Part shown: piece after piece, positions 1-61,652 of the stretch
Layout of the letters: each line of letters starts with the position of its first letter
Numbering within the stretch: position 1 is the first letter of the stretch
Assembly: GCA_050945315.1 (NCBI GenBank)
Contig: JBMNSS010000002.1
Span: forward strand, 1 to 61,652
Direction of reading: 5' to 3'
From: Limnochordia bacterium
GTDB lineage: Bacteria > Bacillota > Limnochordia > DTU080
Length of the DNA stretch: 61,652 nucleotides
Notes under the pieces: model-generated
Seen by the model: only the letters and a program-made list of their open reading frames with translations
The model's database searches: none
What the model was told of the DNA's origin: nothing
Made by a program: the position numbers and the translations under genes

Positions 1-407
1 GCATGGCATTCGCACAGTAGGCGCGTGCCAGGTGGTAGCTGTTGCTTCCATTTCAGAGCGTTCTCTATGTAGAGGTCCTTTTCACCGGCTTCTTTGCCCA
101 AGTTGAACTTAACGGCACGAGCGTTGACAAATGAGGTCAATCGCACAGCCTCTTCCCGCGCTGCCTCGCCTTCGGCATCGAAAGCGGCATAGGAGTTGAA
201 GACGGTGATCGGGAGGCCGCTTTCCTGCAGCAATTTCAGTTCGGTAGAGGAAGCGAGAGCTGCATGGTTTTCCCACAGTTCCATACCGTCGAAGCCAGCC
301 TCCGCGAAGCGCGGTATCCACTCGCTTACCAGGTAAGTCGGCTTCTTTTCACGAGTCCAGCGGTTACGCTCGAGCAGAATGGTGCCGATGTATATATCAG
401 TCTTCAC
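1..407 (-). CDS. sugar phosphate isomerase/epimerase (xylose isomerase-like TIM barrel), C-terminus cut by window edge
   Basis: My own minus-strand translation from GTG (complement at 405-407) gives VKTDIYIGTILLERNRWTREKKPTYLVSEWIPRFAEAGFDGMELWENHAALASSTELKLLQESGLPITVFNSYAAFD... and stays open to position 1. It is absent from the ORF track because there is no stop in the window. The listed 109..321 ORF is in another frame. Confidence 0.6.
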   Translation of the reverse strand, partial: MKTDIYIGTILLERNRWTREKKPTYLVSEWIPRFAEAGFDGMELWENHAALASSTELKLLQESGLPITVFNSYAAFDAEGEAAREEAVRLTSFVNARAVKFNLGKEAGEKDLYIENALKWKQQLPPGTRLLCECH

Positions 408-810
408 GTTTGGCACACTCCCAGGATCTAATTGTCTGCAGCATTATTTGTATTCTCCCTAAGGATCATCATGCCTGCCCTCCATTGGGTGAGCGGGCTG
501 TGCCACAAGTCTGAGCGTGGATTTTCGGTATAGAATCGCGGCCAACGGATCATGCTATGGGTGCCGGGTGAAGGCGGTGCGTGACGCCGACTGATGTCCC
601 CTTAATCAGGGCGTAGATGCAATAAGGCTGCCGACCGTTCATACGGCACCCGGCCAGTCTCGTTGCGTATTGCGACGAGTGTTGCCGACGGCGAAGGAAT
701 GTGTTTCGTCGTCGGCTCGTCCCGCGTTTGGCGCCCGAACCGGAGCAAGGAGTGTGGGCCGATAAGGCGAATGAGTCAAACGGTAAAGACTCACCAAGGG
801 GGCGCATGAC

Positions 811-1833: not shown

Positions 1834-1868
1834 GAATCTGTTGCACCGTGCACCCATTCAGGCCAGAT

Positions 1869-1904
1869 GGCGAGGCAGCTTCTCGATATGGCAGCTGCCT
1901 CGCC
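1869..1904 (+). terminator. stem-loop downstream of the oxidoreductase gene (possible terminator, no clear U-tract)
   Basis: GGCGAGGCAGCT (1869-1880) pairs perfectly with AGCTGCCTCGCC (1893-1904), with a 12-nt loop. Confidence 0.4.
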
Positions 1905-1943
1905 GGTCGGCAATAGTCTTCGTGAAATTTAACGCGCCAGGGC

Positions 1944-1973
1944 TTGACGGCGGGGCCACCTATGTGTCATAAT
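1944..1973 (+). promoter_or_regulatory. sigmaA-like promoter for tRNA-Ala
   Basis: TTGACG (1944-1949), an 18-nt spacer containing TGTGT, then CATAAT (1968-1973), about 30 nt upstream of the tRNA. Confidence 0.4.
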
Positions 1974-2002
1974 AAGTGTCGTGGGTGCACAACAGGATTC
2001 CC

Positions 2003-2078
<76 letters not shown>

Positions 2079-2082
2079 AGAA

Positions 2083-2117
2083 GAGCCCTTCGCAGTCGTT
2101 TGCGAGGGGTTCTTTTG
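2083..2117 (+). terminator. intrinsic terminator after tRNA-Ala
   Basis: A 12-bp stem (2083-2094 with 2101-2112, including G:U pairs) is followed by TTTT (2113-2116). Confidence 0.75.
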
Positions 2118-2211
2118 TATGTATTGAATGTATTGACACACGCACCGAAGCGGAGTATCCTAAGTAATGAGCATACGCTCATTATCTTTCGAGAAGGCAA
2201 GGAGGATGATC

Positions 2212-2583
2212 ATGCCCCGCGGTGATGGAACGGGTCCGACAGGGCAGGGCCCCATGGGTGGTGGTCGGCAGGGCTCCGGCGGAGGTGGCCATGGTCAAAG
2301 AAGAGGTGGAGGTGGGCGGGGTTGGCGGGGACGGTCAGTTGACGCGCAAGAACCGCTGAGCACTGAGACCCCGACCATGGAAACGACACCTTCTGTTCCG
2401 ACTGGGTTTGAGAATGAGTTGGCGTTGTTCAGACAGCAGCTGCAGGAGTGCCGGGAAGCGATGGCGGAGCTCAACCAGCGCATCCTTGAACTCAGCAGGG
2501 CGGCCGTGGGGCAGAGTGTGCCACAGGAAGTCAAACTGGAAGAAAACGCCGAAGAAGCCAGGGACGAAAAGACTCAAGACTGA
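2212..2583 (+). CDS. DUF5320-like small protein (MPRGDGTGP N-terminus, Gly/Arg-rich tract, C-terminal coiled coil)
   Basis: ATG 2212 is preceded by AAGGAGG. The N-terminus MPRGDGTGPTGQGPMGGG matches my recollection of DUF5320. The track ORF 2167..2583 probably starts too early. Confidence 0.6.
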   Translation: MPRGDGTGPTGQGPMGGGRQGSGGGGHGQRRGGGGRGWRGRSVDAQEPLSTETPTMETTPSVPTGFENELALFRQQLQECREAMAELNQRILELSRAAVGQSVPQEVKLEENAEEARDEKTQD

Positions 2584-2707
2584 GCCCGAGAGCCAGTGAT
2601 ACGCTGAGCTAAGCCAAACAAAAGCGTCGTCGAGGCCGCCTAACCTCTTGCGGATCAGCGCGGCATGCGACGGCGCTGCGATTTTTTCTGCGAAAGAAGG
2701 GGGCGCA

Positions 2708-3565
2708 GTGAAAGAAACCAGTGAGAGCACCTGTGCTGTCACGGTGACGGTCATCGTAGATAACAAGGCGCACCGACCGGAGTTTCAGGGAGAGCACGGT
2801 CTTTCAATGTTGCTGGAAACGGCGGAATACAGGATACTGTTTGATGCAGGGCAGTCCGGCGAAGTGCTTTTACATAACGCCCGGGCCCTCGACATCGATC
2901 TGAGTCGGCTCGATGCCATCGTCCTGAGTCACGGGCACTATGATCACACGGGCGGACTTCGCAGTCTGCCGCTTTCATCCGGTGTCACTCGTCTATACGC
3001 ACATCCGGAGGCATTTATTGAACGGTTCAATGAAGATCAACCGGGCACGTTGCGTCCTATCGGCAGCGGGCTGAACCCTCAGGCACTGAGCGAGCTGGGT
3101 TTGGTGTGTGTCTCCTCTACAGGGCCTGAGACAACAGCTCCGGGTGTGGTGGCAACCGGTGAGATTGCCCGTCTCACCGAGTTTGAGGAAGCAACATCGA
3201 CCTTTATGCGAAAACAGGGAGACAGACTGGTGCCTGATCCGATTCCGGATGATCAGGCGCTGGTTGTTCAAACACCCACCGGTCTGATCCTGCTGTTGGG
3301 ATGCGCTCACGCGGGTGTCGTAAATACCCTTGATCATGTTAGGCGTTTAGGCTTTGGCGGACCTATTCGAGCTCTGATAGGAGGCTTCCATCTGCAGGGA
3401 GTGTCTCCGGAGCGACTGCGTCTGACTGTGGACAGCATTGAAGAGAACGACATCCGGGCTGTAATGCCCCTGCATTGCACAGGATCTGAGGCAGAAGCCT
3501 TCATGGCCAAACGACTGGGCAGACGCTTCGTACTCGGTTCGGTAGGCAGCAAGTTACGTTTCTAG
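2708..3565 (+). CDS. MBL-fold metallo-hydrolase (COG1237-type)
   Basis: HGHYDHTGG metal-binding motif. The start is set at GTG 2708 after GAAGGGGG. The track ORF begins at 2648. Confidence 0.75.
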   Translation: MKETSESTCAVTVTVIVDNKAHRPEFQGEHGLSMLLETAEYRILFDAGQSGEVLLHNARALDIDLSRLDAIVLSHGHYDHTGGLRSLPLSSGVTRLYAHPEAFIERFNEDQPGTLRPIGSGLNPQALSELGLVCVSSTGPETTAPGVVATGEIARLTEFEEATSTFMRKQGDRLVPDPIPDDQALVVQTPTGLILLLGCAHAGVVNTLDHVRRLGFGGPIRALIGGFHLQGVSPERLRLTVDSIEENDIRAVMPLHCTGSEAEAFMAKRLGRRFVLGSVGSKLRF

Positions 3566-3659
3566 CTCTCTCACTGGCCGTGGTGACACCTCTCATGAGT
3601 GCAACAGGGATTGTTGACCCTCTGATCGAAGTGGCCATTGATCCATATCTTCTAGGACG

Positions 3660-4697
3660 GTGACTTCAATGGCCAACAGATATTTCTCTTTGTCGGAGTA
3701 TTGGATGCGGAAAGCTCAGGACTGGAAACCCCTGCTGTCATTCGAAGGCAACTCCAAAGGAGATTGGGAGTCTTGGCGCGTCAAGGCTCTGGAGAAGTTC
3801 TTGGAGATCCTGGGGCCTTTTCCTGAACCGGTCGATCTTGCTCCTGATGTGGAGTACACGGTCGAGGAAGGAGATCTGATTCGCGAACGCGTCATCTTCG
3901 ACTCTGAAGCCTACGCATCAGTGCCCTGTATTGTGTTGCGCCCTAAGGACATGCCGCCGAACAAGAAGAATGCAGCGATCATCTGTTGTAACGGTCATCC
4001 GGTAGATATTGGCAAGGATCCGGTGGCCGGTGTGCGTTCGAGCCCGGATCACAATCGCCAAATCGCACTGATGAACTACAACTATGGCGAACAGATGGCC
4101 AAGGCGGGGTATTTGACCATCATGCCGGAGTTGCGCGGTTTTGGTGAACGCAATGATGCCCCGGGACGTCGGGATGTGTGCAATCTCAATTTCATCAAGG
4201 GCTGCATACTGGGCATTTACACCCAGACTCTGAATATCTGGGATGTCAAGTGCTGTGTTGACTATCTGGAGACTCGGCCTGAGGTGGACCCCAACCGCAT
4301 AGGCATGATGGGATTGAGCTACGGGGGTACGATGACCACCTTTACCACGGCTGTAGAGCCCAGGATAAAGGCCGCGAACATCATGGGGTATGTAAACCCC
4401 TTTGCCCGTTTTGGCATCGAGAGAGGCAATTTCTGTGGCTCTCAGATCGTACCCGAGATATACAAACACTTCGATACGGATGATCTGGCAGGTCTGATTG
4501 CTCCCCGACCGTTGTTGGTTGACATGGCCATCTATGATGATTGCTTTTACATTCAAGACTTGCTTAAAGGCTATGAGGGTGTGAAAAGGATCTACGAGGC
4601 GGCCGGGGCCGCTGATGTCTTGCATGCAGACATACATCCCGGTCCACACTCTTTCGCCGGAAACAAGGCCTTTTCGTTCTTTGAGAGATACCTATAG
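3660..4697 (+). CDS. alpha/beta hydrolase (acetyl-xylan-esterase / dienelactone-hydrolase-like)
   Basis: 345-aa ORF with nucleophile elbow GLSYGG and a late His (HPGPHSF). The alternative start is ATG 3669. Confidence 0.7.
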   Translation: MTSMANRYFSLSEYWMRKAQDWKPLLSFEGNSKGDWESWRVKALEKFLEILGPFPEPVDLAPDVEYTVEEGDLIRERVIFDSEAYASVPCIVLRPKDMPPNKKNAAIICCNGHPVDIGKDPVAGVRSSPDHNRQIALMNYNYGEQMAKAGYLTIMPELRGFGERNDAPGRRDVCNLNFIKGCILGIYTQTLNIWDVKCCVDYLETRPEVDPNRIGMMGLSYGGTMTTFTTAVEPRIKAANIMGYVNPFARFGIERGNFCGSQIVPEIYKHFDTDDLAGLIAPRPLLVDMAIYDDCFYIQDLLKGYEGVKRIYEAAGAADVLHADIHPGPHSFAGNKAFSFFERYL

Positions 4698-4837
4698 ACA
4701 CAAATGAGAGCACGCTAAAGAATGACAGCCTCTCGGAGGCAACTTGGCGCCACCGTTGGGCCTCAGTTCAGCCGCCTCTTCTCGATAAAGGAGCTTGCCT
4801 TCGGGCGACGAATGCCCGTGGCTAGGAGGTGTTGATT

Positions 4838-7800
4838 GTGAGACCGGCGGTGGTGCTATTCGTTATTCTCTCATGTGCGCTTGTTCCTGCTGCGGCGGAG
4901 AGCATCGACGGACCCGGTCTGGCCATCATACGTGAGGGTCAGGCGCAAGCAGTGATTGTGATCGTCCCGAATGCTGACGCGCAGACACGAAAGGCTGCCA
5001 ATGTACTGTCGGAGTATCTGTGGAAGTCAACGGGGGCGCGAGTGCCCGTCGTGACTGAAACGGCATCGAGTGAGGGTTATCTTATCTTGGTCGGCGAGAG
5101 CGCGCTCTTAGCGGATCCGCAGATCGCCCTGGCATTACAGGATCTTGATGAACAAGGTTTTCTTATCCGATGTCGTGACGATCGTTTATCCATTGTCGGC
5201 CCTTCGGTCTGGGGTACGTTGCACGGAGTGTATGAGTTTCTGGAGCGGTACGTAGGCGTTCGCTGGCTCTTACCCGGCCCCGACGGCGAGGATGTCCCGC
5301 CTCGTCGCAACGTCACAGTGCCTTGGGGAGAGATCACAGAGGAGCCGGCGTTCTCCTATCGTACGATCAGCCCCGTCAGGGGTTCACCGGACGGCTCCGG
5401 TGCCACGCAATGGCACAATGAATGGGCGCAGCGCAATAAACTTCAGGGAAGCTACAATGATCGGATTCGATTCCATCATAACTTGCACGCTGTCTTTCCT
5501 CCTGAAAAGTACGGGAAGACTCATTGTGAGTTGTACCCCGGCTGCAGGGCCCCGGCATCCGGGCAGGATACGGGGTGGCAGCCGTGTTTTACGGCAAAAG
5601 ACAGCGTTGATGTTGCCGTCGCCGAGATCACCGCCTATTTTGCGGCCCGTCCCCATGAAACCTTCTTTTCGCTGGGTGTAAACGACTCCAGAGGCCACTG
5701 CGAAGCCAATCCTTCCCATCCACATTACCCCGGTCGGTTGAACTCCATCGGCATGGTCGATATGTCAGATATCTACTACGCCTGGGTCAACGAGGTAGTG
5801 GCCAGAGTCCTCGAAGTCTACCCGGATAAATGGTTTGGGCTACTGGCCTACTATGATGTGATGGATCCACCGTCATTTCCGTTGCACCCGCGGGTCATTC
5901 CTTTCATCACCAAGGATCGTATGGCTTGGATCGACACCGACGTTCGCACTGCGGGCCATGAGCAGATGGATGCCTGGAACGAGGTAGCCGCTCAGGTGGC
6001 CTGGTATGACTACATGTACGGCGGAGCTCACTATATCGTGCCGCGTATCTTCAGCCACGCCATGGCAGAGAACTTCCGCTATGCCAGGCGTAATGGCGTG
6101 GTAGGCACGTACACCGAGATGTATCACACGGTCATAGACGGTCCAAAGCCCTGGCTTGCGGCTCGTCTGCAGTGGAACCCGGATCAAGACGTCGATGCTT
6201 TGCTTTGGGAGTGGTATGAGAGGGCCGTGGGACCCGCTGCAGCACATGATTTGAAGGACTTCTACGATCGGTGGGAGCATTTCTGGACGGAACGCATCAA
6301 GGAGTCCTCTTGGTTCAGCGGAGGCAAGGAGCGGACCTATCTGCCGTTTACTGACCAGTCATATTTGCACCTGGTGACTGATGAAGACATCGATGAAAGC
6401 AAGCGATTGCTGGCATCGGTTGTAGCCAAAGCAAAGACACCTGAACAAAAAGCCCGTGCCGAGCTTATCCGGAGGTCTTTCGATTATTGTGAGGCTTCTG
6501 TGATCAGCTATCCCCGGCAGACGTCACCGCCTAGAGACCGCTCCGCCGCCCTCGGCATGTTGGACAATGTGGCCGATACGCTGGAGAAACGATTACAGGC
6601 GGCACAGAGACGCTATGAGCTGGTGGATGAGTTCCGCGCTCTGCCGCTGTTGAGATTTCCGTCCGAGAAGCGAGTCTATCATTGGAGCGGTTGGCCTGTG
6701 GAGGAGTTTTTCCACCTGGTCAATTACGTTCAGGCACATGAAAGCGGCGGAGGCCCCGTGAGCGACGGGGTTAAATCGATGGCCGGGAGCAGTTCTCCCC
6801 AATTGCGAGCCTTTGCTGATCTTCTGTTGCAGGTCTTTGACGGAACATCATCTTTAACGTTGGCCAGTTCTTTTGAGGACCCCATCGAGACCGATCGCCG
6901 ATGGAGTAAATGGATCGTCAGCACCGGGAACATTCGGCGTGTTGAAGATGAGGCATACCGTGGTCGGGCCAGTATGCTCATCGAAGGTATGGCCCGGGGC
7001 GGTCCGCATCAGATTTTCGACGTGCAACCGGGCTTGGTTGCGGTGTCGGTCCGTTACTACGTACCGTCGGGCAGCAAGGAAGGAACGATTCAGCTGACTC
7101 TGCATTTGAAGAACGCGCAAGGAGCCAACCTGGTCAGCTATCGCTCAAGTCCGTCGCAACTGTCATCGCAGGCAGGCCAATGGGCGGGTCTGGGCCTCCT
7201 TGAGGAAGTACCGGGCTACGTGGACGGTCAAAGAGTAGCCAGGGCACAGGTAGTGGTCACGGTTGACGGAGCCTTGAATACGCCCGTCTACGTAGATGAG
7301 GTGCTGGTCTGCCATAGCAAGGCTGCGATCCCCGTTTCGGTCTATGAGCAGTTCATTGAGTTTGCGACCTTGGAGGGCAGTCATCACGGCATTATGGGGA
7401 TGCGTGGCATGTTGGATGCACGGGTGAGGCTGCCCCTTGTCGATCCAGAGGAGATCGAAAGCGTTGAAATACGACTGGACGACGCTCCCGTTTACAACGG
7501 AGCCAGACTGCCCGGGGCGGGCGAGGTCATGATCGATACCCGCAGTCTGTCAGACGGCAGACATGAACTCGCCGCTCGCATCGTCGTCGAAGGGATCGGG
7601 ATTGTGGAAAAATCAGTGGGCTTTGTGACGCGCAACTACTGGATTCTTCACGACCCCTTCGAACCGCCCAAGGAAACGGGTTGGTTTGGAACACTGGATC
7701 GTTCAAGAACGAGTGAGCAATCCGACGGCTGGCAGTATTCCCTTGAACGATCGGAGGAGTTTTGGGGAGACAGCGATCGGAAGGTCCGGATCGGCAATAC

Positions 7801-8110
7801 CACGGAGCACTTGATCTGGGAGACTCCGAGTCTGCGCGACTATAGCATTACGTTATACGCCAAGCGGCCGGACATCAGCGAGACCATCGATGTCGCGGTC
7901 TCTTTTGATGGCGGCACCTGGGAATCACTGCCCTACACGGTCACGGATATGGGACGTTCGTCACATGGTTGGCACCGACTGGTGATTGAGGGGACGATCT
8001 CGACTTGGACTGGCGAAAGCCCACGGCTCCTGCGGGTGCAGCTGCGGAAGTCTGAGGCGTATGAAGAGATTCATCTCGGCGAGGCTGAATTCAGGGGGTT
8101 AAACGAGTAA
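4838..8110 (+). CDS. large secreted DUF4838-like (GH20-related fold) protein with C-terminal beta-rich domains
   Basis: GTG 4838 lies 8 nt after AGGAGG. The signal peptide is MRPAVVLFVILSCALVPAAA. The N-terminal region (GFLIR..DRLSIVG..GTLHGVYEFLERYVGVRWLLPG) resembles DUF4838 proteins. Confidence 0.55.
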   Translation: MRPAVVLFVILSCALVPAAAESIDGPGLAIIREGQAQAVIVIVPNADAQTRKAANVLSEYLWKSTGARVPVVTETASSEGYLILVGESALLADPQIALALQDLDEQGFLIRCRDDRLSIVGPSVWGTLHGVYEFLERYVGVRWLLPGPDGEDVPPRRNVTVPWGEITEEPAFSYRTISPVRGSPDGSGATQWHNEWAQRNKLQGSYNDRIRFHHNLHAVFPPEKYGKTHCELYPGCRAPASGQDTGWQPCFTAKDSVDVAVAEITAYFAARPHETFFSLGVNDSRGHCEANPSHPHYPGRLNSIGMVDMSDIYYAWVNEVVARVLEVYPDKWFGLLAYYDVMDPPSFPLHPRVIPFITKDRMAWIDTDVRTAGHEQMDAWNEVAAQVAWYDYMYGGAHYIVPRIFSHAMAENFRYARRNGVVGTYTEMYHTVIDGPKPWLAARLQWNPDQDVDALLWEWYERAVGPAAAHDLKDFYDRWEHFWTERIKESSWFSGGKERTYLPFTDQSYLHLVTDEDIDESKRLLASVVAKAKTPEQKARAELIRRSFDYCEASVISYPRQTSPPRDRSAALGMLDNVADTLEKRLQAAQRRYELVDEFRALPLLRFPSEKRVYHWSGWPVEEFFHLVNYVQAHESGGGPVSDGVKSMAGSSSPQLRAFADLLLQVFDGTSSLTLASSFEDPIETDRRWSKWIVSTGNIRRVEDEAYRGRASMLIEGMARGGPHQIFDVQPGLVAVSVRYYVPSGSKEGTIQLTLHLKNAQGANLVSYRSSPSQLSSQAGQWAGLGLLEEVPGYVDGQRVARAQVVVTVDGALNTPVYVDEVLVCHSKAAIPVSVYEQFIEFATLEGSHHGIMGMRGMLDARVRLPLVDPEEIESVEIRLDDAPVYNGARLPGAGEVMIDTRSLSDGRHELAARIVVEGIGIVEKSVGFVTRNYWILHDPFEPPKETGWFGTLDRSRTSEQSDGWQYSLERSEEFWGDSDRKVRIGNTTEHLIWETPSLRDYSITLYAKRPDISETIDVAVSFDGGTWESLPYTVTDMGRSSHGWHRLVIEGTISTWTGESPRLLRVQLRKSEAYEEIHLGEAEFRGLNE

Positions 8111-52491: not shown

Positions 52492-52967
52492 GGGTCTTAT
52501 CTGATACCCACATCCCGGGTCGGGCTCGTAAGATTCCGGATGAGGTTATCGCCGGTATGGCGGGTGTAAGTCTGATCATTCACGCCGGTGACATCGTGCA
52601 TCAGGATGTATTGTCGACCCTGGCTGCGATCGCACCGGTCCACGCGGTGTATGGCAACATGGACCCTCCGTCGCTGCGAAGGGCTCTGCCACGCCGACGA
52701 GTCGTCGAAGCAGAAGGATATCGCATCGGTATCATACACGGTGATGGGCGGTATGGCAGTACACTCGCTCGTGCTCTAAACGCTTTTGACGACGTGCACT
52801 GCATCGTCTTTGGGCACTCGCACCGACCCGTCTGCACCCGCCATGGTGATCTTTTGTTGCTCAATCCCGGGTCGCCGACTGACAGACGTCTGAGTCCCAA
52901 GCATTCTTACGCCATCTTAACCGTATCGACGTCTGGGTTGGAGGGCGAGATTGTCTACTTCGACTGA
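52482..52967 (+). CDS. YfcE/MJ0936-family metallophosphoesterase
   Basis: MRIGVLSDTHIPG, HAGD, GNMD and FGHSH motifs. ATG 52482 lies 6 nt after GGAGG. Confidence 0.8.
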   Translation: MRIGVLSDTHIPGRARKIPDEVIAGMAGVSLIIHAGDIVHQDVLSTLAAIAPVHAVYGNMDPPSLRRALPRRRVVEAEGYRIGIIHGDGRYGSTLARALNAFDDVHCIVFGHSHRPVCTRHGDLLLLNPGSPTDRRLSPKHSYAILTVSTSGLEGEIVYFD

Positions 52968-53673
52968 TGAGCTCAAGTTGTACGCCATCGCTGATTTGCA
53001 TTTGCCGGGCGGCCAGGACAAGCCTATGGACGTGTTCGGCGTACAATGGCGTGACCATGTGACCCGTCTGCGACAGGCATGGGTTGATCTTGTCAGTGAT
53101 GAAGACTGGGTGTTGGTGCCGGGCGACATCTCCTGGGCAATGCGCCTGGAAGAAGCCTTGCCTGATCTGCATTTTCTCGGCAGCCTTCCCGGTCGGATCA
53201 TTTTGCTGCGCGGCAATCATGACTATTGGTGGCAAGGCATCGGCAAGGTACGCGGAGTGTTGCCGGCCAACATGTACGCCATACAAAACGACTGTATACT
53301 GCTGCCCGACAATACGGCAATCTGCGGGGCCCGTGGATGGGATCTTCCCACCAAAGAAGGGATCAGTGCTCACGACATCCGCATCTATGAACGTGAACTC
53401 CAGCGCTTACGGATGTCGCTGGAGCAAGGTCGCCAATCGGGGGCCCGTCGCTTGGTGGCCATGATGCATTTCCCCCCGGCTGAGACGGGAGGCATGCCGA
53501 CAGGGTTTACGGCGCTCCTGGAGGAGTATGACGTAGCGATCTGCGTGTATGGCCATCTTCACGGCGACTATGGCAGACGAGCCCTCCGAGGATGCCATCG
53601 CGGTGTCTGCTACCGGTTGGTATCCGCCGATGCCCTGGATTTCCGCCCTTGGTTGGTGAGCGAGCTTGACTAG
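52951..53673 (+). CDS. metallophosphoesterase (calcineurin-like)
   Basis: IADLHL, PGDISW, GNHDYWW and YGHLH motifs. The TTG start follows GGAGGG. Confidence 0.7.
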   Translation: MSTSTDELKLYAIADLHLPGGQDKPMDVFGVQWRDHVTRLRQAWVDLVSDEDWVLVPGDISWAMRLEEALPDLHFLGSLPGRIILLRGNHDYWWQGIGKVRGVLPANMYAIQNDCILLPDNTAICGARGWDLPTKEGISAHDIRIYERELQRLRMSLEQGRQSGARRLVAMMHFPPAETGGMPTGFTALLEEYDVAICVYGHLHGDYGRRALRGCHRGVCYRLVSADALDFRPWLVSELD

Positions 53674-54326
53674 GAGCAGACACGCTCTCCGGTGACCAGG
53701 TAGATCACACGTTCAGCGATGTTGGTGGCGTGATCCGCGATTCTCTCCAAGTGCTGGGCGACAAAGAGCAAGTTGAGGGCTTGCTGTGCATTCGCCGCAT
53801 CGGTTCCCTGGATGATCAGGCCAAGCAGCTCGTCGTGCAGTTCCGAATAGAGCTTGTCGATCAGGTCGTCTTCGCCGCGGACTTTTTCCGCCAAGGCCGT
53901 GTCGCGACTGACAAAGGCATCGAGGCTTTCGTGAACCATTTGGCGGGCGAGGGTTGACATGCGTGGGATATCCACCAGAGGCTTGATCAGAGGGTTGGCA
54001 CCGATCCTCAAGGCTATGAGAGCGATGGCGGTGGCATGATCGGCCATGCGTTCCAGATCGGTGATGGCTTTGAGAGCGGTGGTCACCGTTCGCAGGTCGC
54101 TGGCTAAAGGATGATGCAGGGCCAGGATGCGTATACAATCGCCTTCTATGCGTCTTTCCAGGTCATCGATGACTTTGTCACCTTCAACGACCGACTTGGC
54201 GAGTTCCAGATCTTGCTCCGACAAGGCGCGATCTGCATCGCGTATGGCTTCTTCCACAAGAGTGCCCATGCGCAGAATGGCGTCGTTGATGCTTTCCAAC
54301 TGGTGGCAGCAACGTCCCTCGTTCAT
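53670..54326 (-). CDS. phoU: phosphate signaling complex protein PhoU
   Basis: Two PhoU repeats (ERMADHATAIA and ERIADHATNIAE). The start overlaps the upstream stop (ATGA). Confidence 0.9.
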   Translation of the reverse strand: MNEGRCCHQLESINDAILRMGTLVEEAIRDADRALSEQDLELAKSVVEGDKVIDDLERRIEGDCIRILALHHPLASDLRTVTTALKAITDLERMADHATAIALIALRIGANPLIKPLVDIPRMSTLARQMVHESLDAFVSRDTALAEKVRGEDDLIDKLYSELHDELLGLIIQGTDAANAQQALNLLFVAQHLERIADHATNIAERVIYLVTGERVCS

Positions 54327-55144
54327 GAATCGGTACCTCCAGACGGGTCGCGTGATGATGAACGACTGATCAATGAGAGCAGTTTTTTGTAGTTTCCGGT
54401 CAGGAAGCTTTCAGTACGCGGATCTTCAGGACGCTCAAAAAGGCTCTCCGTGGATCCGATTTCTACTATCTGACCACAGCAGAGGAAAGCCATCTTCTTG
54501 CTTATCCGTCCGGCCTGATCAGGCTCTCTGGTTGCCCATATCAGCGTCATGGTTCCAGCCGCCATGGCTGCCATCACAGTATCCTCGAAACGGGCTCGTC
54601 CGATGCTGTCGAGTCCGCGGGTAGGATCGTCAAGCAACAAGAGACCAGGGGATGTGGCCAGGGTACGGGCCAGAGCCATAAGACGAAGCGTGACCGGGTC
54701 ACTGGCATTATACGGGCGGCGGAGGCGGCCGCGCATCTCCTGCCACAGCCCCACCAGACGCAGGACCCGCTCAGTCTGTTCACCGACTTCCTCACTTGAG
54801 TGGCCTCGCAGCGACAAGCCAATTTCCTCAAGAGGCGTGCGAGCCAAAGGCGCGGGTATAAGCAGTCCGACACGTCGCCGCAGCGAGCGCGTAGCGATGC
54901 GCGTTACATCCATTCCCTCCACAAGAATCCGACCTTCAACCTGAGCACCCGGCACTTCATCCAGGAGCCGATTGATCGCCCACATCAGGGCTGATTTCCC
55001 GGAGTTCACCGGACCCACGATCGACAGAGTCCCACCCGCGACCACCTCAAAGGAGACTCCATCCAGAAGCTGCACTTCGTCGACTCGCGCGGTGAGGCTT
55101 TTGACCGTTAAAGAAAGCGGATTCGGCGGTTCAGGTAGCATCAT
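54323..55144 (-). CDS. degenerate PstB-like ABC ATPase-fold protein (probably non-catalytic)
   Basis: The layout is collinear with PstB and Walker A (GPVNSGKS) is retained. The Q-loop Gln is absent (GLLIPAP), LSGGQ is replaced by NASDPVT, Walker B is LLLLDDP (no catalytic Glu), and the H-loop is WATR. The start is set at ATG 55144. Confidence 0.65.
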   Translation of the reverse strand: MMLPEPPNPLSLTVKSLTARVDEVQLLDGVSFEVVAGGTLSIVGPVNSGKSALMWAINRLLDEVPGAQVEGRILVEGMDVTRIATRSLRRRVGLLIPAPLARTPLEEIGLSLRGHSSEEVGEQTERVLRLVGLWQEMRGRLRRPYNASDPVTLRLMALARTLATSPGLLLLDDPTRGLDSIGRARFEDTVMAAMAAGTMTLIWATREPDQAGRISKKMAFLCCGQIVEIGSTESLFERPEDPRTESFLTGNYKKLLSLISRSSSRDPSGGTDS

Positions 55145-56495
55145 GGCGAAGATCCTCCAGCGTAGTGGATAGGTCGCCTTCACGAATACGTGGGCGAAGC
55201 TCGAAAGAGCGTAAGATCAGAGCACCCAGTTGAGCCACTCCGGCCATCAACGCCCAAACCAATGCCGGGGCCGCGGACAGACTCTGACGTGAAGAGTACA
55301 AGGCGTTCAAGAATGCCGCGCTCGCCAACCAGGCAGCCGTGGAAGACAGAAGCTGTGCAGGCAGAAAGACGCGACGATGAGGCTCTTGAGTTGGCAGTCC
55401 CAAAGCCCCCGCCGCGGCGGCAGTTGTAGCCTGACCCAATCTTAACATACGCCTGACGGCACCGGCATGGGCCCATCTGGCAGCGGCAAGTTGGATAAAC
55501 ACATACACCGTGAGTCCCGCCACGGCTACTGACAGCCAGATGGGGCGCTTGGCCTGTGAGCCTATGACTACCGGATAGGTCCAGATGATAGGCGACAAAG
55601 CGGCCAGATGCACGGCAATCCGTGACCCGGAGTGGGAGTGTGTCAGAATTCGGATACGACTCGTTAGCAAGGTCACAAGACTCGCACTGCCGACTATGAC
55701 CAGTGCGTCCGTCAAAGCTCTCGCCATGACTTCCGGCGGCGGGGACACAGTAGCCAACTGGGCCTGCGCTCCGCCGGTAATCCAAGTGCGCAACACGGCC
55801 AGACCGACCAGTTCCAGCACGGCACCGATAACCAAGAGAGTTACGGTAAAGTGCAGCACCAAAGATACTGTAAACTCCGATCGGGGAATGACGCGCAGAC
55901 GGGCAGGCAATTCAGGCAGTGGGCCGAACAGAGGCGGATAGATGGGTCGACCAGTGTGGCCCACAAAAGCGGCGAGTGATTTCCGAAAACACAACATAGA
56001 AATACCTGAGAAAACGATCGCCCAGAAAATGCCTTGCCGCTCGTTGGCAATCCCAAACAAAGCACCGAAGTCGGCGAAAAGCCGTGATGCGTAAAGACCG
56101 ATTGCCGCTTGAAGCTCAACGGGGGCCTTGGAGATCGTAGCCACTCCGATTTGCCAAATGGATAATCCCAAGGCGCGGCCGGCAGCCAGCTCTTCTCCGC
56201 GGGGTTCGAGAGCCTGCAACAAGAGAAGAACGCCCAGTGGCAGGTGCGACAATATGATGATTCCGCTGCACAGAGGAAATGAGATATGCTCCCTGGAGGT
56301 CAGGATGAGAGCCAAATAGCCGGCCCCCGACAGGGCGGTGGCCCACTCTACACCCAAGCGCACCCATCCGGCGACGCGATGCGGCAGAAAAAAGGCTATG
56401 GTCGCGCTCGTAAGACCCGCAAGCAGCAGACTTCCTACTGCTATACCGGTTACTGCCGGCAAAGAGGCCATTGAGTTCAGCCCGATCCCCCCCAA
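55131..56495 (-). CDS. polytopic membrane protein resembling a fused, reduced PstC/PstA-type ABC permease
   Basis: Two EAA-loop-like segments are present: EELAAGRALGLSIWQIGVATISKAP and RMLRLGQATTAAAAGALGLPTQEPHRRVFLP. The protein is 454 aa and hydrophobic throughout. Confidence 0.5.
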   Translation of the reverse strand: MGGIGLNSMASLPAVTGIAVGSLLLAGLTSATIAFFLPHRVAGWVRLGVEWATALSGAGYLALILTSREHISFPLCSGIIILSHLPLGVLLLLQALEPRGEELAAGRALGLSIWQIGVATISKAPVELQAAIGLYASRLFADFGALFGIANERQGIFWAIVFSGISMLCFRKSLAAFVGHTGRPIYPPLFGPLPELPARLRVIPRSEFTVSLVLHFTVTLLVIGAVLELVGLAVLRTWITGGAQAQLATVSPPPEVMARALTDALVIVGSASLVTLLTSRIRILTHSHSGSRIAVHLAALSPIIWTYPVVIGSQAKRPIWLSVAVAGLTVYVFIQLAAARWAHAGAVRRMLRLGQATTAAAAGALGLPTQEPHRRVFLPAQLLSSTAAWLASAAFLNALYSSRQSLSAAPALVWALMAGVAQLGALILRSFELRPRIREGDLSTTLEDLRHDAT

Positions 56496-56593
56496 AAGGC
56501 TTCACTACCTCCAAGTATAACACCTTTAGCGCGATACACCCTGTTTACGGGGTAGTAAACAATATGTAAAGACTCCCCGAACTCAGTGATCGC

Positions 56594-57931
56594 TTACTGC
56601 GGAAAGGCCATGGTGAAGCGACTGCCATGCCCCAGCCTGCTCTCAACATGAACCTGACCGCCGTGTTGTTCAACGACATGGCGAACGATGGAAAGGCCGA
56701 GACCGGTTCCGCCCATGGCTCTCGAGCGTGCTTTGTCGACTCTGTAGAACCTCTCAAAGATGCGGGGCAAGTGTTTGGAAGGAATGCCCTGACCTGTGTC
56801 ACAGACGCTGATGGCGATCCGTCCGTCCTCGGTGTTTTTCCCCTCGATCCAGACCTGTCCGTCTTTTGAGGTGTACTTGATCGCATTATCGAGGAGGTTT
56901 AACAACGCTTGACGCAATAGGGAGGCATCAGCTTTGATTTGCAGTCCCGACGGCACTTGATTATCCAGTGTGACGCCCTTCTCTTGCGCCATAGGGGCCA
57001 CAAGCTCAAGAGCTTGCGTCACTTCCGCACGGACGTCCAAGACTTCCAGGGTTATGGCCGTATCGTCTGACTCCAGACGTGATAATTCCAGGAGGTCATC
57101 AACGAGATGCGCCAGCCGATCGGCTTCGCCCGAGAGGATGTTCAGAAAGCGGGCGCACACTTCAGGATCGTGCATCGCTCCGTCAAGCAGGGTTTCAAGG
57201 AAGCCCTTGATGGATGTGATGGGAGTGCGCAACTCATGGGAGACATTGGCCACAAATTCAGAACGGATTCTTTCCAATTGCCTTAGTTGCGTGACGTCAT
57301 GCAGCACGGCGACCGCTCCCGACAGCTTGCCCGAAGCGGTGCGAACGGGGGCCACTTCCGCCTGTAGGTGACGAGGCGGCACGTCGATGGTTTCAAATTC
57401 GTAAGTAGTAGGCTGTGCTCCGCCCAGGGCCTCCTGCATGGTACGCGCCAGTTGCCGGTGGCGGATCACTTCCAATACATTGCGACCTACTACCTCCTCG
57501 GCCTCAACATGAAAAAGGCGCTCGGCTCCGGGATTGATAAGCGCTATGCGCCCGGATGCACCCAGAGCTATAACCGCATCACGCATACTCGTGAAGACGG
57601 CGCGCAGGCGATCGCGATCGTGCTCCAGTTGTGTCAGACGCTGCTGGACGCGCTCTTGCATCTCTTGGATCGCGGCGGCCAAGCGCAACAGTTGGGGTCC
57701 CGGCAGTACGGACAGACTTGGCAGCTTGCCCTCGGGCCACTGCACTACAGCTTCTTCGAGTCTTTTTAGACCTTCTTTCGCTCCGGCGATGCGAAGATTC
57801 AGATGCCAGACGAGATATGCCGCTGCTCCGGCGGGGAGCAAAGCCCAGGCCCACCATCCAAGACCCAGTAACAGACCGGCAAGCGTCGCGGCTACGGCGA
57901 GGGCGCTGATCAGGCCAAGGTGTTCAGGCAT
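56594..57931 (-). CDS. phoR: PhoR-like sensor histidine kinase
   Basis: Two N-terminal TM helices, HAMP and PAS regions, the HisKA H-box FVANVSHELRTPITSI, and HATPase N/G boxes. Confidence 0.8.
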   Translation of the reverse strand: MPEHLGLISALAVAATLAGLLLGLGWWAWALLPAGAAAYLVWHLNLRIAGAKEGLKRLEEAVVQWPEGKLPSLSVLPGPQLLRLAAAIQEMQERVQQRLTQLEHDRDRLRAVFTSMRDAVIALGASGRIALINPGAERLFHVEAEEVVGRNVLEVIRHRQLARTMQEALGGAQPTTYEFETIDVPPRHLQAEVAPVRTASGKLSGAVAVLHDVTQLRQLERIRSEFVANVSHELRTPITSIKGFLETLLDGAMHDPEVCARFLNILSGEADRLAHLVDDLLELSRLESDDTAITLEVLDVRAEVTQALELVAPMAQEKGVTLDNQVPSGLQIKADASLLRQALLNLLDNAIKYTSKDGQVWIEGKNTEDGRIAISVCDTGQGIPSKHLPRIFERFYRVDKARSRAMGGTGLGLSIVRHVVEQHGGQVHVESRLGHGSRFTMAFPQ

Positions 57932-58619
57932 CTTGTCGGACCTGCTCTCTGAATCGGTATCCTATGCCATGCACGGTTTCGATGTAGCGCGGGTTCTGCG
58001 GGTCATCGTTGATTTTCTGTCTGAGACGCCGTATATGGACATCCAACGTGCGGGTTGCCCCGGCGAATGCATAGCCCCATACCTCTTCTAACAGAAGATC
58101 TCTTTCAAGGGCTTTGCCGGCGTTTTCAGCGAGCATCTTCAACAAATCAAATTCTTTGGGAGTCAGTTCGACAGGTTCTCCGGCGATGGTCACTTGGTGT
58201 CGCTCGCTGTCGATGACCAAATCCCCGGCAACCAGACGATCGTCTTCTTGCATCACGGGGGACCGGCGTAGCACGGCGCGCACCCGGGCCAGCAACTCCC
58301 TGGGACTAAAAGGTTTGACGACATAATCATCAGCGCCCAGATCAAGTCCGCGGATGCGGTCCTGCTCTTCGCCTCTGGCCGTCAACATTATGACCGGTAC
58401 GGCGCTTTGGGCCCGAATTCGTTTGCATACCTCATATCCGTCCGGCTCGGGAATCATCAGATCGAGAACTACCAGATCGGGCTTTTCTTTCATGAACATC
58501 TCCAGGGCACTCTTGCCGTCAGCCGCCGTAACAACCTCATAGCCGTCCTTTTTCAGATTAAAAGAGACCAGCTCCAAGATGGCCGGTTCGTCATCGACAA
58601 CCAGTATGCGCTGTTTCAC
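57924..58619 (-). CDS. phoP: OmpR/PhoB-family response regulator (PhoP-like)
   Basis: REC domain (ILVVDDEP...DLVVLDLMIPE) plus a winged helix (YIETVHGIGYRF). The GTG start follows GGAGGT, and the gene overlaps phoR by 8 nt. Confidence 0.85.
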   Translation of the reverse strand: MKQRILVVDDEPAILELVSFNLKKDGYEVVTAADGKSALEMFMKEKPDLVVLDLMIPEPDGYEVCKRIRAQSAVPVIMLTARGEEQDRIRGLDLGADDYVVKPFSPRELLARVRAVLRRSPVMQEDDRLVAGDLVIDSERHQVTIAGEPVELTPKEFDLLKMLAENAGKALERDLLLEEVWGYAFAGATRTLDVHIRRLRQKINDDPQNPRYIETVHGIGYRFREQVRQDA

Positions 58620-58826
58620 GACGATGCACCTCCGTTCTTAACAAGTTTTCTTCGTCGGGTTATCGAACGGACCCTTCTTCGGAGCAAGCTGACAATCATG
58701 CGACGGAATCTCTGTCTGTTTCTATGAGATGATATTACAAAAGGCCGACGGTACCGAGAGCAATGGACTCTTGTCACCGGACAGCTCAGTCGTTACACTG
58801 TGGACGGAGGGATCACACTGAGCGCT

Positions 58827-60170
58827 ATGGCAGAATCCAAACGAGCAGCCTTTATGACACTGGGGTGTAAGGTTAACGCCTATGAGACCCAAGCCGTGGC
58901 GGGCATGTTCCGCGAGCGCGGCTATCGGATAGTCGGCTTTGATGAAGAGGCCGATGTCTATGTGATCAACACCTGCAGTGTCACCGGTACCGGGGCGAAA
59001 AAATCGCGTCAGATGATCCGACGCGCTATCAGACGCAATCCGCAGGCCACTGTGGTCGCCATGGGGTGCCACACTCAGGAGGCAGCCGCCGAAGTGGCAA
59101 GCATTCCGGGGGTGGATGTGGTAGTCGGCACCGCCGGCAGACGACGGATTGTCGACTTGGTGGAAGATGTCATCGCTACCGGGCAACCGATTGACGCCGT
59201 GGTTAGAGTAGGCCGGAGCCGGGAGTATGAAGAGATACCGGCAACTCATGCGGAAGGTAAGACCCGCGCCGTGATCAAGGTCCAAGATGGCTGCGATGAG
59301 TTCTGCTCTTACTGTGTGATTCCGCGCCTTCGCGGGCGCAGTCGCAGTCGTCTTCTGAACCATGTGGTTGAGGAAGCGCAGGATCTGATAGTCGCCGGGT
59401 ACGGGGAGATCGTGCTGACCGGGGTCCATCTGGGAGCATACGGCGCGGATCTGGATCCTCCGCTGACTGTCGTCGATCTCGTGAAGGCTGTTGGGAACAT
59501 GCCCGGGTTGTTGCGTCTGCGGCTCAGTTCGCTTGATCCACATGAGATCAGCGACGCGCTGATCGAAGTGATAGCCGGCAATGCCCGCATATGCAGGCAT
59601 TTGCATATCCCTGCCCAAGCCGGTGATGATGGCATACTGCGAGCCATGAGGCGGCGAAATTCAGCTGCCGACTACTTCGAGTTGGTCGATCGTCTGCGCA
59701 GGGCACTGCCGGATTTGGCGATTACGACGGATATCATCGTCGGGTTTCCCGGAGAGACTGACACCCATTTCCAAGCGACCTACGATTTCTGCACCGCCAT
59801 CGGCTTCAGCAAGATCCATGTCTTTCCTTATTCGCGACGGCGGGGGACGCGGGCGGCGACGATGCCGGGGCATGTGGAAGTAGCTGTCAGGAAAGAGCGA
59901 GCTCAACGCTTGTTGGAGTTGAGCGACGCCTTGGCCTTGTCTTACCACAAATCGCTTGTCGGAAGACCGCTTGAGGTGCTTATCGAAGCTCCGTCAGACA
60001 AATATGCGGATTACATGCAAGGACTTACGGATACCTATGTACGGGTGCATATGCCGGCCGGTCAGATCGCCGAGCCCGGTGCCCTGGTGGAAGTGGTGGC
60101 GACGGAGGCTTTTTCTGACGGACTAAGGGCCGATGAGACGCCGATACTGAAGAAGCATGATATAAGTTGA
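58827..60170 (+). CDS. mtaB: tRNA (t6A37) methylthiotransferase MtaB
   Basis: The UPF0004 N-domain (TLGCKVNAYE) and the radical SAM motif CDEFCSYC are followed by a TRAM-like C-terminus. The track ORF begins at 58800. Confidence 0.9.
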   Translation: MAESKRAAFMTLGCKVNAYETQAVAGMFRERGYRIVGFDEEADVYVINTCSVTGTGAKKSRQMIRRAIRRNPQATVVAMGCHTQEAAAEVASIPGVDVVVGTAGRRRIVDLVEDVIATGQPIDAVVRVGRSREYEEIPATHAEGKTRAVIKVQDGCDEFCSYCVIPRLRGRSRSRLLNHVVEEAQDLIVAGYGEIVLTGVHLGAYGADLDPPLTVVDLVKAVGNMPGLLRLRLSSLDPHEISDALIEVIAGNARICRHLHIPAQAGDDGILRAMRRRNSAADYFELVDRLRRALPDLAITTDIIVGFPGETDTHFQATYDFCTAIGFSKIHVFPYSRRRGTRAATMPGHVEVAVRKERAQRLLELSDALALSYHKSLVGRPLEVLIEAPSDKYADYMQGLTDTYVRVHMPAGQIAEPGALVEVVATEAFSDGLRADETPILKKHDIS

Positions 60171-60287
60171 GGGAAAAACTTGCACCAGGCAGGAGGCTGC
60201 GCTTTTCCGGCGAAAGGAGAGTACGCGTATCACGAGGCCTGTGGCATGCCGCGGCATTCTCGCGACATGAGGAAGTGAGATCGAACG

Positions 60288-60638
60288 ATGGCAGAGCATG
60301 ATTGCATTTTTTGCCGTATAGCAAAGGGAGAAGTACCTGCTGACATTGTCCACGAAAACGAGCGGATTGTGGCTTTTCGAGACATCAATCCTCAAGCACC
60401 CGTGCACGTGGTAGTCATCCCTCGCAAGCATATAGCTTCGCTCGCGGCGAGTACTGCAGAAGATGTCGCCCTCTTGGGGGAAGTATTGAAGGCCGCCAAG
60501 GAAGTTGCGGAAAAGCTGGATATCCGGGCCACCGGCTATCGGGTGGTCAACAACTGCGGTCGTGATGCTCAGCAGAGTGTTCAACACATTCACTTTCATG
60601 TGTTGGGCGGTCGTCACTTAGGTTGGCCGCCGGGATGA
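60288..60638 (+). CDS. HIT family (histidine triad) nucleotide-binding protein
   Basis: CIFCRI N-terminus and the HIHFHVLGG triad motif. Confidence 0.9.
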   Translation: MAEHDCIFCRIAKGEVPADIVHENERIVAFRDINPQAPVHVVVIPRKHIASLAASTAEDVALLGEVLKAAKEVAEKLDIRATGYRVVNNCGRDAQQSVQHIHFHVLGGRHLGWPPG

Positions 60639-60743
60639 TTCGCAGTTGATCTATGGATGCCGGACGTATACGATGTTCATTGTAAGTCGTGAGATCCCAA
60701 AGGGCCGTGAACGCAAGAGTCGGGCGCGAAAGGAGGGATCGTA

Positions 60744-60938
60744 GTGGCAGAGATTCGTGTCGGTAAGAATGAATCCCTCGATCGCGCTTTGCGACGCTTC
60801 AAGCAGACTTGTCGCAGATCAGGAGTGCTGGCCGATGCTCGTAAGCACGAGGTTTATGACAAACCGAGCGTAAAAAGAAAGAAAAAGGCAGAAGCCGCGC
60901 GCAAACGTGCTAGGAGAAAAACTCGCAGAGATTCCTGA
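60744..60938 (+). CDS. rpsU: 30S ribosomal protein S21
   Basis: The 64-aa product begins [19 protein letters not shown] (after the GTG initiator) and has a basic C-terminus. Confidence 0.9.
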
Positions 60939-60969
60939 CTGGCGAGTGCCGGGTAAGCGATGTGATGGC

Positions 60970-61005
60970 AGGCCACCCTTTTTCTGTACGGGTGGCCTTT
61001 CTGTC
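60970..61005 (+). terminator. intrinsic terminator after rpsU
   Basis: AGGCCACCC (60970-60978) pairs with GGGTGGCCT (60990-60998), followed by TTCTGTCT. Confidence 0.7.
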
Positions 61006-61018
61006 TAGGGACGGACAG

Positions 61019-61311
61019 TTGAGCGCTTGACTTGATCAATGTTTTCGACCATCCGTGGTCTGCGAGCATTGATCATGTACGACGACAGTCGTAAGCTCAA
61101 CCAGCCTCAGCCAGGACCTTACGTCATCGGGCTACGTTACGGACGAATGTATAGGCACTTCGGGATGCTTCCCCCAGTTCCGAACTCTGTGGTGAGTGAT
61201 CAAACAGCACGGATCAAGGCAACGGGCAGTGTCACTCACATTTGAAACCGTCCGATAACATTGGCGAGGGGACCCATTACCGCCCACATAGGTGAGTACG
61301 CCTTGAGTAGG
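61019..61311 (+). ncRNA. candidate IscB omega-RNA (HEARO-type) scaffold; boundaries approximate
   Basis: The region lies directly upstream of the iscB-type ORF and has no credible ORF. Nested helices: 61033-61041/61067-61075, 61047-61051/61056-61060, 61078-61083/61088-61093 and 61192-61199/61232-61239, with an alternative 61234-61239/61292-61297 pairing. The sequence is repeated elsewhere in the window. Confidence 0.5.
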
Positions 61312-61652
61312 GTGTTTGTCCTGGACACCAACAAGAAACCTTTACATCCAACACATCCGGCAAGGGCACGCATACTTTTGAAGAAGGGTAAGGCGGCTGT
61401 ATACCGCATGTACCCCTTTACAATCATCCTTAAGTATGCGGTAGACACTCAGGTTAAATCCCAACTGCGTCTAAAGATCGACCCCGGCAGCAGAACCACC
61501 GGAATGGCTGTAGTTGACGACAAGACGAAGAAAGTGATTCTCGCAGCTGAGCTTAATCACCGAGGTCACATCATAAAACAAAACCTGGACAAGAGACGTG
61601 CTATTCGTCGATCCAGACGTAACAGAAAGACACGTTACAGACAGGCCAGGTT
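61312..61652 (+). CDS. iscB: IscB/IsrB-type OMEGA RNA-guided nuclease, N-terminal 113 codons only (runs off the window)
   Basis: My own translation from GTG 61312 is MFVLDTNKKPLHPTHPARARILLKKGKAAVYRMYPFTIILKYAVDTQVKSQLRLKIDPGSRTTGMAVVDDKTKKVILAAELNHRGHIIKQNLDKRRAIRRSRRNRKTRYRQAR. This shows a PLMP-type N-domain, RuvC-I (IDPGS) and an Arg-rich bridge helix (RRxRR). It is not in the ORF track because there is no stop in the window. Confidence 0.8.
   Translation, partial: MFVLDTNKKPLHPTHPARARILLKKGKAAVYRMYPFTIILKYAVDTQVKSQLRLKIDPGSRTTGMAVVDDKTKKVILAAELNHRGHIIKQNLDKRRAIRRSRRNRKTRYRQAR

Follow-up and report, generated by a model that had tools for sequence, protein, structure and literature searches.

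An iscB gene at the contig end and the RNA gene before it

The window, by which we mean the whole stretch of 61,652 nucleotides analysed here, is an entire contig, so the iscB gene at its right-hand end, which follows rpsU and an RNA gene on the same strand (Table 1), is broken off by the contig end. A sequence-only reading of this DNA had proposed an open reading frame absent from the supplied track, running from GTG 61312 to the last base with the N-terminal architecture of IscB or IsrB (a PLMP domain, a RuvC-I aspartate and a bridge helix). We confirmed that this frame stays open without a stop through 61652 (113 codons) and contains KKPLHPTHPARARILLKKGKAAV..PFTI, LKIDPGS and DKRRAIRRSRRNRKTRYRQAR, and profile searches agreed with the proposed architecture: the window codons matched Pfam RRXRR (PF14239) at E 7.2e-42 and NCBIfam guided_IscB (NF040563) at 156.5 bits over profile positions 1-113 of 314, a score that falls below the cutoff of 175 because the fragment is truncated. 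Two details of the earlier description needed adjusting. While the frame is real, its start codon is likely TTG 61303 (MSRVFVLD) rather than GTG 61312, since AGGTGA stands upstream of the TTG and the homologues begin with MNK or MSK followed by VFVLD; and while the gene is indeed cut, the edge that cuts it is the actual end of the contig and not merely that of a window. We attribute the absence of iscB from the track to the contig ending inside a repeated element.

Table 1. Features at the right-hand end of the window and in the element that begins there
Feature	Positions	Strand	Description
rpsU (ribosomal protein S21)	60744..60938	+	Pfam Ribosomal_S21, E 8.4e-19; host gene upstream, same strand as element
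Terminator-like hairpin after rpsU	60970..60998	+	AGGCCACCC, 11-nt loop, GGGTGGCCT, then TTCTGTCT; host sequence outside element
Candidate omega-RNA guide (16 nt)	61001..61016	+	CTGTCTAGGGACGGAC; host DNA directly 5' of element boundary
IscB element, first 636 bp	61017..61652	+	Remainder (1,028 bases) past contig end, to position equivalent to 62680
Omega-RNA scaffold	61018..61280	+	P1 encloses two hairpins, conserved core after them; RF02033 and covariation
First long hairpin inside P1	61030..61078	+	TGATCAATG (61033-61041)/CATTGATCA (61067-61075); tip GACCA-tccg-TGGTC = GACCAtccgTGGTC (61047-61060)
Second hairpin inside P1	61078..61093	+	TACGAC-gaca-GTCGTA
Omega-RNA stem	61192..61239	+	GTGAGTGA (61192-61199)/TCACTCAC (61232-61239); region covered by helices 7-9 of the pair counts
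Putative Shine-Dalgarno of iscB	61290..61295	+	AGGTGA, 7 nt before TTG 61303
iscB, codons 1-116 of 432	61303..61652	+	PLMP domain, RuvC-I (D60 at 61480-61482), arginine-rich bridge helix; cut by contig end

Scanning metagenome contigs, we found one (JGI24499J29688_1013209, 2,337 nt; L020 below) that is 100% identical to window positions 61046-61652 (607 nt) and then continues, and we read the RuvC-II, RuvC-III and HNH residues, which fall outside the window, from this continuation. The frame closes at L020 1556 to give a protein of 432 aa from the TTG start, scoring 435.7 bits on guided_IscB over the full profile (1-314 of 314; cutoff 175) and 234.5 bits on RRXRR. The contig almost certainly represents the same locus as the window, because NfeD1b lies downstream in L020, as expected at this site; with L020 coming from another assembly, continuity between the two is very likely rather than proven, on the grounds of the 607-nt identity and the nfeD1b flank. 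An exact search of genome contigs with 68 nt of the window end, exact-protein look-ups of the window's S21, and a look-up of P0391 (a 281-aa member of the same protein cluster on a 4,658-nt NCBI contig that is possibly the continuation contig of the same MAG) each returned no match.

Aligning the L020 protein with 14 homologues of 58-64% identity, we found D60 (RuvC-I), E157 (RuvC-II), and H304 and D307 (RuvC-III) to be invariant, and across the same 15 sequences the HNH residues H212, N226 and N235 and the zinc cysteines C198, C201, C231 and C234 were invariant as well. The HNH domain itself spans residues 195-242 (PF01844, 46.6 bits over 195-238; PF14279, 45.7 bits; PF13395, 35.5 bits). The RuvC-II and RuvC-III motifs on which the sequence-only reading had staked its assignment are thus present in the full-length frame, and the domain search that it had proposed recovers HNH from the continuation. 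The best PDB matches are solved IscB structures (e.g., OgeuIscB 7xht, E 1e-27), RefSeq plasmid homologues at 52-54% identity carry the name 'RNA-guided endonuclease IscB', and the nearest proteins beyond the protein's own 90% cluster are 62-64% identical. A first protein search with the 113-aa fragment gave only fragments of <200 aa and the full-length relatives came from a second; phmmer found 2,489 relatives among 1.84 billion cluster representatives.

The spacer between rpsU and iscB, for which an omega-RNA had been proposed, matches the Rfam family HEARO (RF02033) on the plus strand at 61055-61280 (84.8 bits, gathering score 83, E 1.9e-17, model positions 1-211), the one significant match in a scan of 60600-61652. 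Across the whole 61.6-kb window HEARO is, apart from one tRNA, the sole family to reach its gathering score, and it does so once. Together with the protein matches, this lies far outside what chance would produce. The score only just clears the threshold, and Infernal set the 5' end 37 nt downstream of the true one, in both cases because the first hairpin is enlarged to about twice the consensus length. The scaffold begins at 61018 and not at the Rfam-aligned 61055, with GTTGAGC (61018-61024) pairing with GCTCAAC (61095-61101) to form stem P1, and in a related copy (L019, JGI 3300002898) the HEARO model aligns from the base equivalent to window 61018. HEARO also lies upstream of iscB in nine of the nine other related loci scanned; in one locus (L003), a group II intron lies between the two.

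The evidence for this predicted omega-RNA is comparative rather than thermodynamic, the covariance model and compensatory changes being what singles it out. A fold of -37.6 kcal/mol (z = -6.4) was obtained for the 5' domain, 61017-61102, with the same shape in L019, while the whole of 61001-61311 (311 nt) reaches a z of only -1.5. Comparing the window with L019, to which it is about 90% identical, we found that TGATCAATG/CATTGATCA becomes TGATCGACG/CGTCGATCA (two compensatory pairs), that GTGAGTGA/TCACTCAC is fully swapped to GCTCACGG/CTGTGAGC, and that TTCGG/CCGAA becomes CGTAGG/CCTACG. On an alignment of ten relatives RNAalifold gave 47 pairs, 31 of them with compensatory changes, and covariation extends to P1 and 8 other helices. 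Pairing holds in 92.2% of cells, as against 29-37% with slid partners, and none of 500 shuffles reached the observed values. These compensatory stem changes point to selection on the spacer at the RNA level.

The structured elements that the sequence-only reading had listed in the spacer were all found where it had placed them, and its description of a spacer with no credible ORF stands insofar as this is an RNA gene with stems under compensatory change, although mechanical ORFs do exist there (e.g., 68 aa at 61039-61245). Its pseudoknot-like option did not survive: we rejected the alternative pairing of TCACTCAC with GTGAGT (61292-61297), as the L019 stem has changed on both sides while GTGAGT is unchanged, such that the pairing cannot form there, and GTGAGT makes better sense as a piece of the ribosome-binding site of iscB. 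The second hairpin inside P1 also supplies one of the two arms of a 21-nt inverted repeat, which pairs 61076-61096 with L020 1512-1532.

Element boundaries and the empty site

Comparisons with three further sequences fix the boundaries of the element. At the left end, similarity to L019 starts abruptly at AGTTGAGC (61017/61018), the sequences upstream being unrelated. At the right end, a copy 99.2% identical (L025, ENA ERZ773357) matches L020 to ...CCTGGTACTC (L020 1635), past which L020 reads TAAGGATG and L025 reads AGAGGTGA. The element is therefore delimited as AGTTGAGCGCTTGAC... to ...GTACCATCCTGGTACTC, at a length of 1,664 bp give or take one base, and its ends (AGTTGAGC... and ...GGTACTC) are not terminal inverted repeats. 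L019 and L025, with a different upstream and a different downstream flank, respectively, are independent copies elsewhere. Sister copies are decaying: L019 carries frameshifts, and in L025, L026 and L027 a different element has broken into the sequence at the point equivalent to L020 443.

The third sequence, a Firmicutes MAG (L036, GCA_012522115.1) whose MtaB is 86% identical, carries rpsU (4143-4337) directly before nfeD1b with a 93-nt spacer and represents an empty site. The window's left flank, ending at 61016, and the right flank in L020, starting at L020 1636, fall on the adjacent L036 bases 4415 and 4416 with no base duplicated or missing, i.e., there is no target-site duplication. The flanks are 86% and 83% identical to L036, whereas the element itself has no match in L036. 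The earlier placement of the insertion right after the rpsU terminator thus holds, the L036 spacer being colinear base for base with both element flanks, whereas the span proposed for the element from 60939 onward does not: 60939-61016 is host DNA from the region of the rpsU 3' hairpin, present in the empty site too, and the element begins at 61017. That hairpin folds at -21.6 kcal/mol (z = -3.2) and is conserved in the L036 empty site; a promoter/terminator scanner run over 60200-61652 called nothing, the 11-nt loop of the hairpin exceeding the scanner's limit of 3-8 nt.

Within these boundaries lie the omega-RNA gene, iscB and a structured tail of 79 nt after the iscB stop, leaving no room for tnpA. 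The element is oriented like rpsU and nfeD1b, and has a G+C content of 50% against 56.5% for the window; the gene that follows it in L020, 97 nt after the iscB stop, encodes NfeD1b (Pfam E 2.3e-38). Two nucleotides from the distal end stands a hairpin, GTACCA-tcc-TGGTAC (GTACCAtccTGGTAC, L020 1619-1633), which resembles the tip of the first omega-RNA hairpin, and another relative (L030) has the same layout with a hairpin at each end. The first omega-RNA hairpin probably doubles as a subterminal hairpin read by a TnpA transposase, and the distal hairpin probably serves likewise.

Taking these lines together, we are highly confident that window positions 61017-61652 are the left 636 bp of a 1,664-bp non-autonomous IS200/IS605-type element, comprising an omega-RNA (HEARO) gene and iscB, that lies between rpsU and nfeD1b in an uncultured Firmicutes genome. 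It shows the sequence features by which IscB/omega-RNA systems are defined and, as is usual for IS200/IS605-type insertion sequences, occurs at more than one site, is missing from the matching site of L036 and lacks both target-site duplication and terminal inverted repeats; mobilisation would be by a Y1 (HUH) TnpA. It is another member of a well-described group that standard Rfam and NCBIfam models detect, and in that sense its identification is routine annotation.

Candidate guide, target-adjacent motif and proposed activity

In described IscB elements, the guide is the flank just outside the transposon end and the HEARO scaffold is bounded by that end, and transcription of the omega-RNA must therefore start outside the insertion sequence (Meers et al. 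2023, 10.1101/2023.03.14.532601). If the present locus follows this layout, the host bases directly upstream of the boundary are the candidate guide, CTGTCTAGGGACGGAC, a sequence that has no second occurrence in the window even when up to 3 mismatches are allowed. Its length of 16 nt is assumed from described IscB systems. In the published scheme, excision by TnpA leaves a donor joint, IscB and its omega-RNA cleave that joint, and recombination then reinstates the element (Meers et al. 2023).

Building on the identity, the boundaries, the insertion without duplication and the independent copies established above, we propose a series of steps that are taken over from published IscB work. Transcripts from rpsU would read through its 3' hairpin into the element, and the resulting RNA would carry the 16 host bases 61001-61016 at its 5' end, followed by the scaffold from 61018 to about 61280. 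IscB would bind this omega-RNA; a TnpA encoded elsewhere, if present, would excise the element, and the complex would then cut the rejoined donor site, that is CTGTCTAGGGACGGAC followed by the candidate TAM TAAGGA, with GGGACGGAC and TAAGGATG meeting at the excision junction. Read-through at the rpsU hairpin is plausible because nfeD1b in the empty site sits behind the same hairpin without room for a promoter. The same hairpin is stable, lies 2 nt before the guide and could reduce the transcription on which the omega-RNA depends.

The candidate TAM is drawn from two insertion sites that have no more than xRAGG in common, the flanks at the distal end being TAAGGA at nfeD1b and AGAGGT in L025; at the intact site in L036 the sequence is AAAGGA, the Shine-Dalgarno of nfeD1b. 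In each of the two known insertions, a start codon in the same orientation follows the iscB-distal end at a distance of 13-17 nt. These placements raise the idea, to which we assign little likelihood, that the TAM coincides with a ribosome-binding site by mimicking a Shine-Dalgarno sequence. Seeking such a motif in more distant relatives, whose distal ends were to be recognised by a second copy of the first hairpin, we found that copy in L030 and L001 but no consistent motif in the bases after it, and the idea did not carry over to them. Were the idea correct, insertions would land in transcribed, co-oriented spacers that provide the outside transcription for the omega-RNA guide. It would also supply a mechanistic cause for the bias of IscB elements toward the orientation of the upstream gene, for which preferential generation versus retention was left undecided (Meers et al. 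2023, 10.1101/2023.03.14.532601).

Other readings of the locus and comparison with known systems

We weighed three other readings of the locus. Judged by the part inside the window (PLMP, RuvC-I and bridge helix), the gene fits IscB and IsrB, the HNH-less relative of IscB, equally, and residues 2-164 also match a solved structure of IsrB (8dmb, E 5e-14). IsrB nicks rather than cuts. This reading is nonetheless highly improbable, as the L020 continuation has the HNH domain described above (residues 195-242, PF01844 at 46.6 bits) with the catalytic H212, N226 and N235 and all four zinc cysteines kept, and as the RNA matches HEARO; because the HNH domain is present, and provided that L020 is the continuation, we reject IsrB, and the predicted protein is an IscB. 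A domesticated or CRISPR-associated IscB/Cas9-like effector, in place of a transposon gene, would find some echo in weak, sub-threshold matches over the HNH region, yet these stay far from Cas9 or type II CRISPR membership (Cas9d, 49 bits against a cutoff of 375; Cas9, 28 bits against a cutoff of 100). The element moreover ends 79 nt past the iscB stop and is followed by nfeD1b, 97 nt after that stop, so no array or cas gene is present; the protein has only 432 aa, copies occupy different sites, and one relative has the site without the element, all of which leaves this reading with hardly any credibility.

The remaining alternative accepts that the gene is an iscB in a transposon-type element and holds that this copy is a stranded relic, no longer able to move or home and heading for decay, whether through loss of its cognate TnpA or through insufficient omega-RNA production downstream of the rpsU hairpin. 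The sequence-only reading had seen no tnpA, and a tblastn search of the 61-kb window with approximate IS200 and IS608 TnpA queries likewise gave nothing significant (best E 0.053), a weak negative. The frameshifts in L019 and the interruptions in L025, L026 and L027 at L020 443 speak in the same direction, as does the strong hairpin directly upstream of the guide, and only about 1.5% of iscB genes lie near tnpA (Meers et al. 2023, 10.1101/2023.03.14.532601). Against decay, the L020 frame is intact and keeps all invariant residues, the stem differences between the window and L019 are compensatory, and a genome only about 15% diverged in the flanks lacks the element at the orthologous site, implying a fairly recent insertion; further, the lack of room for a promoter of nfeD1b's own in the empty site suggests that read-through would occur naturally. 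On balance we consider the relic reading unlikely, though it deserves considerably more weight than the other two, and we favor a non-autonomous IscB element that may still be active.

The element adds little to biology, as IscB elements with HEARO omega-RNAs are already well described. Its value lies in annotation, in that the spacer is an RNA gene and not empty DNA and that iscB had been missing from the track, and in the locus being an unusually clean worked example, in which the boundaries are exact, the empty site is known and both a guide and a TAM can be proposed. The compact 432-aa IscB, a predicted nuclease, would together with its omega-RNA also offer a directly testable orthologue for genome editing.

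Compared with IsrB, the protein shares the N-terminal PLMP domain, RuvC-I and bridge helix as well as the IS200/IS605 context, and differs in having the HNH domain that IsrB lacks. The closest parallel in make-up is provided by the GstIscB elements of Geobacillus stearothermophilus (10.1101/2023.03.14.532601), which are likewise non-autonomous and IS605-like with only an omega-RNA gene and iscB, in which the HEARO end is the transposon end, the guide lies just outside and the element is co-oriented with the upstream gene, and whose host is also a Firmicute. The differences are that the GstIscB TAM is TTCAT, 5' of the left end (ATGAA in iscB orientation), as against a flank of TAAGGA or AGAGGT here, and that for the present element both a partner TnpA and activity are predictions from sequence. 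Set beside Rfam HEARO RF02033, the RNA matches over the full model and above the gathering score, with helices backed by covariation, a first hairpin about twice the consensus length and a true 5' end 37 nt upstream of the reported match. Relative to the solved IscB/OMEGA systems (OgeuIscB, PDB 7xht, 7utn, 8csz), similarity is only distant (E ~1e-27 to 1e-49) and the protein is shorter, at 432 aa versus 496 aa in OgeuIscB, while the domains follow one another in the same order (PLMP, RuvC-I, bridge helix, RuvC-II, HNH, RuvC-III, C-terminal domain) and here too the omega-RNA gene precedes iscB on the same strand. TAAGGA, the candidate TAM, also fits the OgeuIscB target motif, reported as NWRRNA (PMC12660989).

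Repeated hairpins and an inverted repeat in IscB elements

In two more distant IscB loci (L030 and L001), the first omega-RNA hairpin occurs twice, and the second occurrence, at the far element end, lies directly past, or overlaps, the iscB stop codon. This two-end layout is consistent with a single hairpin having two uses, one in the guide RNA and one for the transposase. Within the element at rpsU, we found an inverted repeat pairing the second omega-RNA hairpin (5' arm) with the last iscB codons (3' arm), the latter read from L020, the metagenome contig that continues past the window end, with loop and flanks agreeing in reverse complement only. This 3' arm lies beyond the reach of two other element copies (L019 and L027), both of which stop earlier.

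Coordinates of features in the element, its copies and related loci
Feature	Position	Remarks
Foreign sequence in iscB copies	L025 1-52; L026 1-97; L027 1-26	junction at L020 443 (window 61488 equivalent)
First omega-RNA hairpin	L030 1209-1232 and 2821-2844	direct orientation
First omega-RNA hairpin	L001 5771-5795 and 7300-7324	direct orientation
21-nt inverted repeat	window 61076-61096 and L020 1512-1532	20/21 complementary
rpsU 3' spacer	L036 4338-4430	counterpart window 60939-61016
HEARO RNA	L003 3319-3516	
Group II intron part RF02012	L003 3516-3659	
Reverse-transcriptase ORF of intron	L003 3943-5805	
Group II intron part RF00029	L003 5802-5878	
iscB ORF	L003, starts 5932	
TnpB-like gene (Cas12f1-like_TNB)	L029 1-1029	- strand
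iscB	L029 1501-2820	

Assembly breaks and disrupted iscB copies

In two assemblies made independently of each other, contigs break off within the element, at window 61652 (the contig end) in one and at L020 position 1 (window 61046 equivalent) in the other, and the protein database holds very many RRXRR fragments of <200 aa, many from short contigs. Such breaks are the usual effect of a repeated or polymorphic element on short-read assemblies, which is why iscB is missing from the annotation track. A contig from a separate sequencing run (L035, Logan SRR31066337) shares 100% identity with window 52854-60797 across its positions 1-7944 and therefore represents the same population sampled elsewhere; it terminates within rpsU, its assembly too breaking shortly 5' of the element.

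L025, L026 and L027, iscB copies that each come from a separate metagenome (94-99% identity to L020), carry one common foreign sequence upstream of iscB codon ~62. It terminates in ...TGTTGACAAAACGGGGGTCACTAC, preceded by the end of an ORF, HSRLGYRSPRKYQEIRALRKNVA*, and resembles the end of an insertion sequence, putatively of DDE/rve type, that would have disrupted iscB in these populations.

The rpsU spacer and neighbouring elements

Uninterrupted, as seen in a related Firmicutes MAG (L036), the stretch from rpsU to nfeD1b is only 93 nt and includes a strong hairpin. This arrangement suggests co-transcription of nfeD1b with rpsU, the hairpin acting as a leaky terminator or as a stabiliser; in the window's genome, 1,664 bp of element now separate the two genes.

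A group II intron separates the HEARO RNA from its iscB ORF in Ktedonobacteria bacterium brp13 (L003, AP024096.1, 3319-5932), the intron start coinciding exactly with the end of the HEARO match, and on a 16.9-kb metagenome contig (L029) a TnpB-like gene in divergent orientation adjoins an IscB element.
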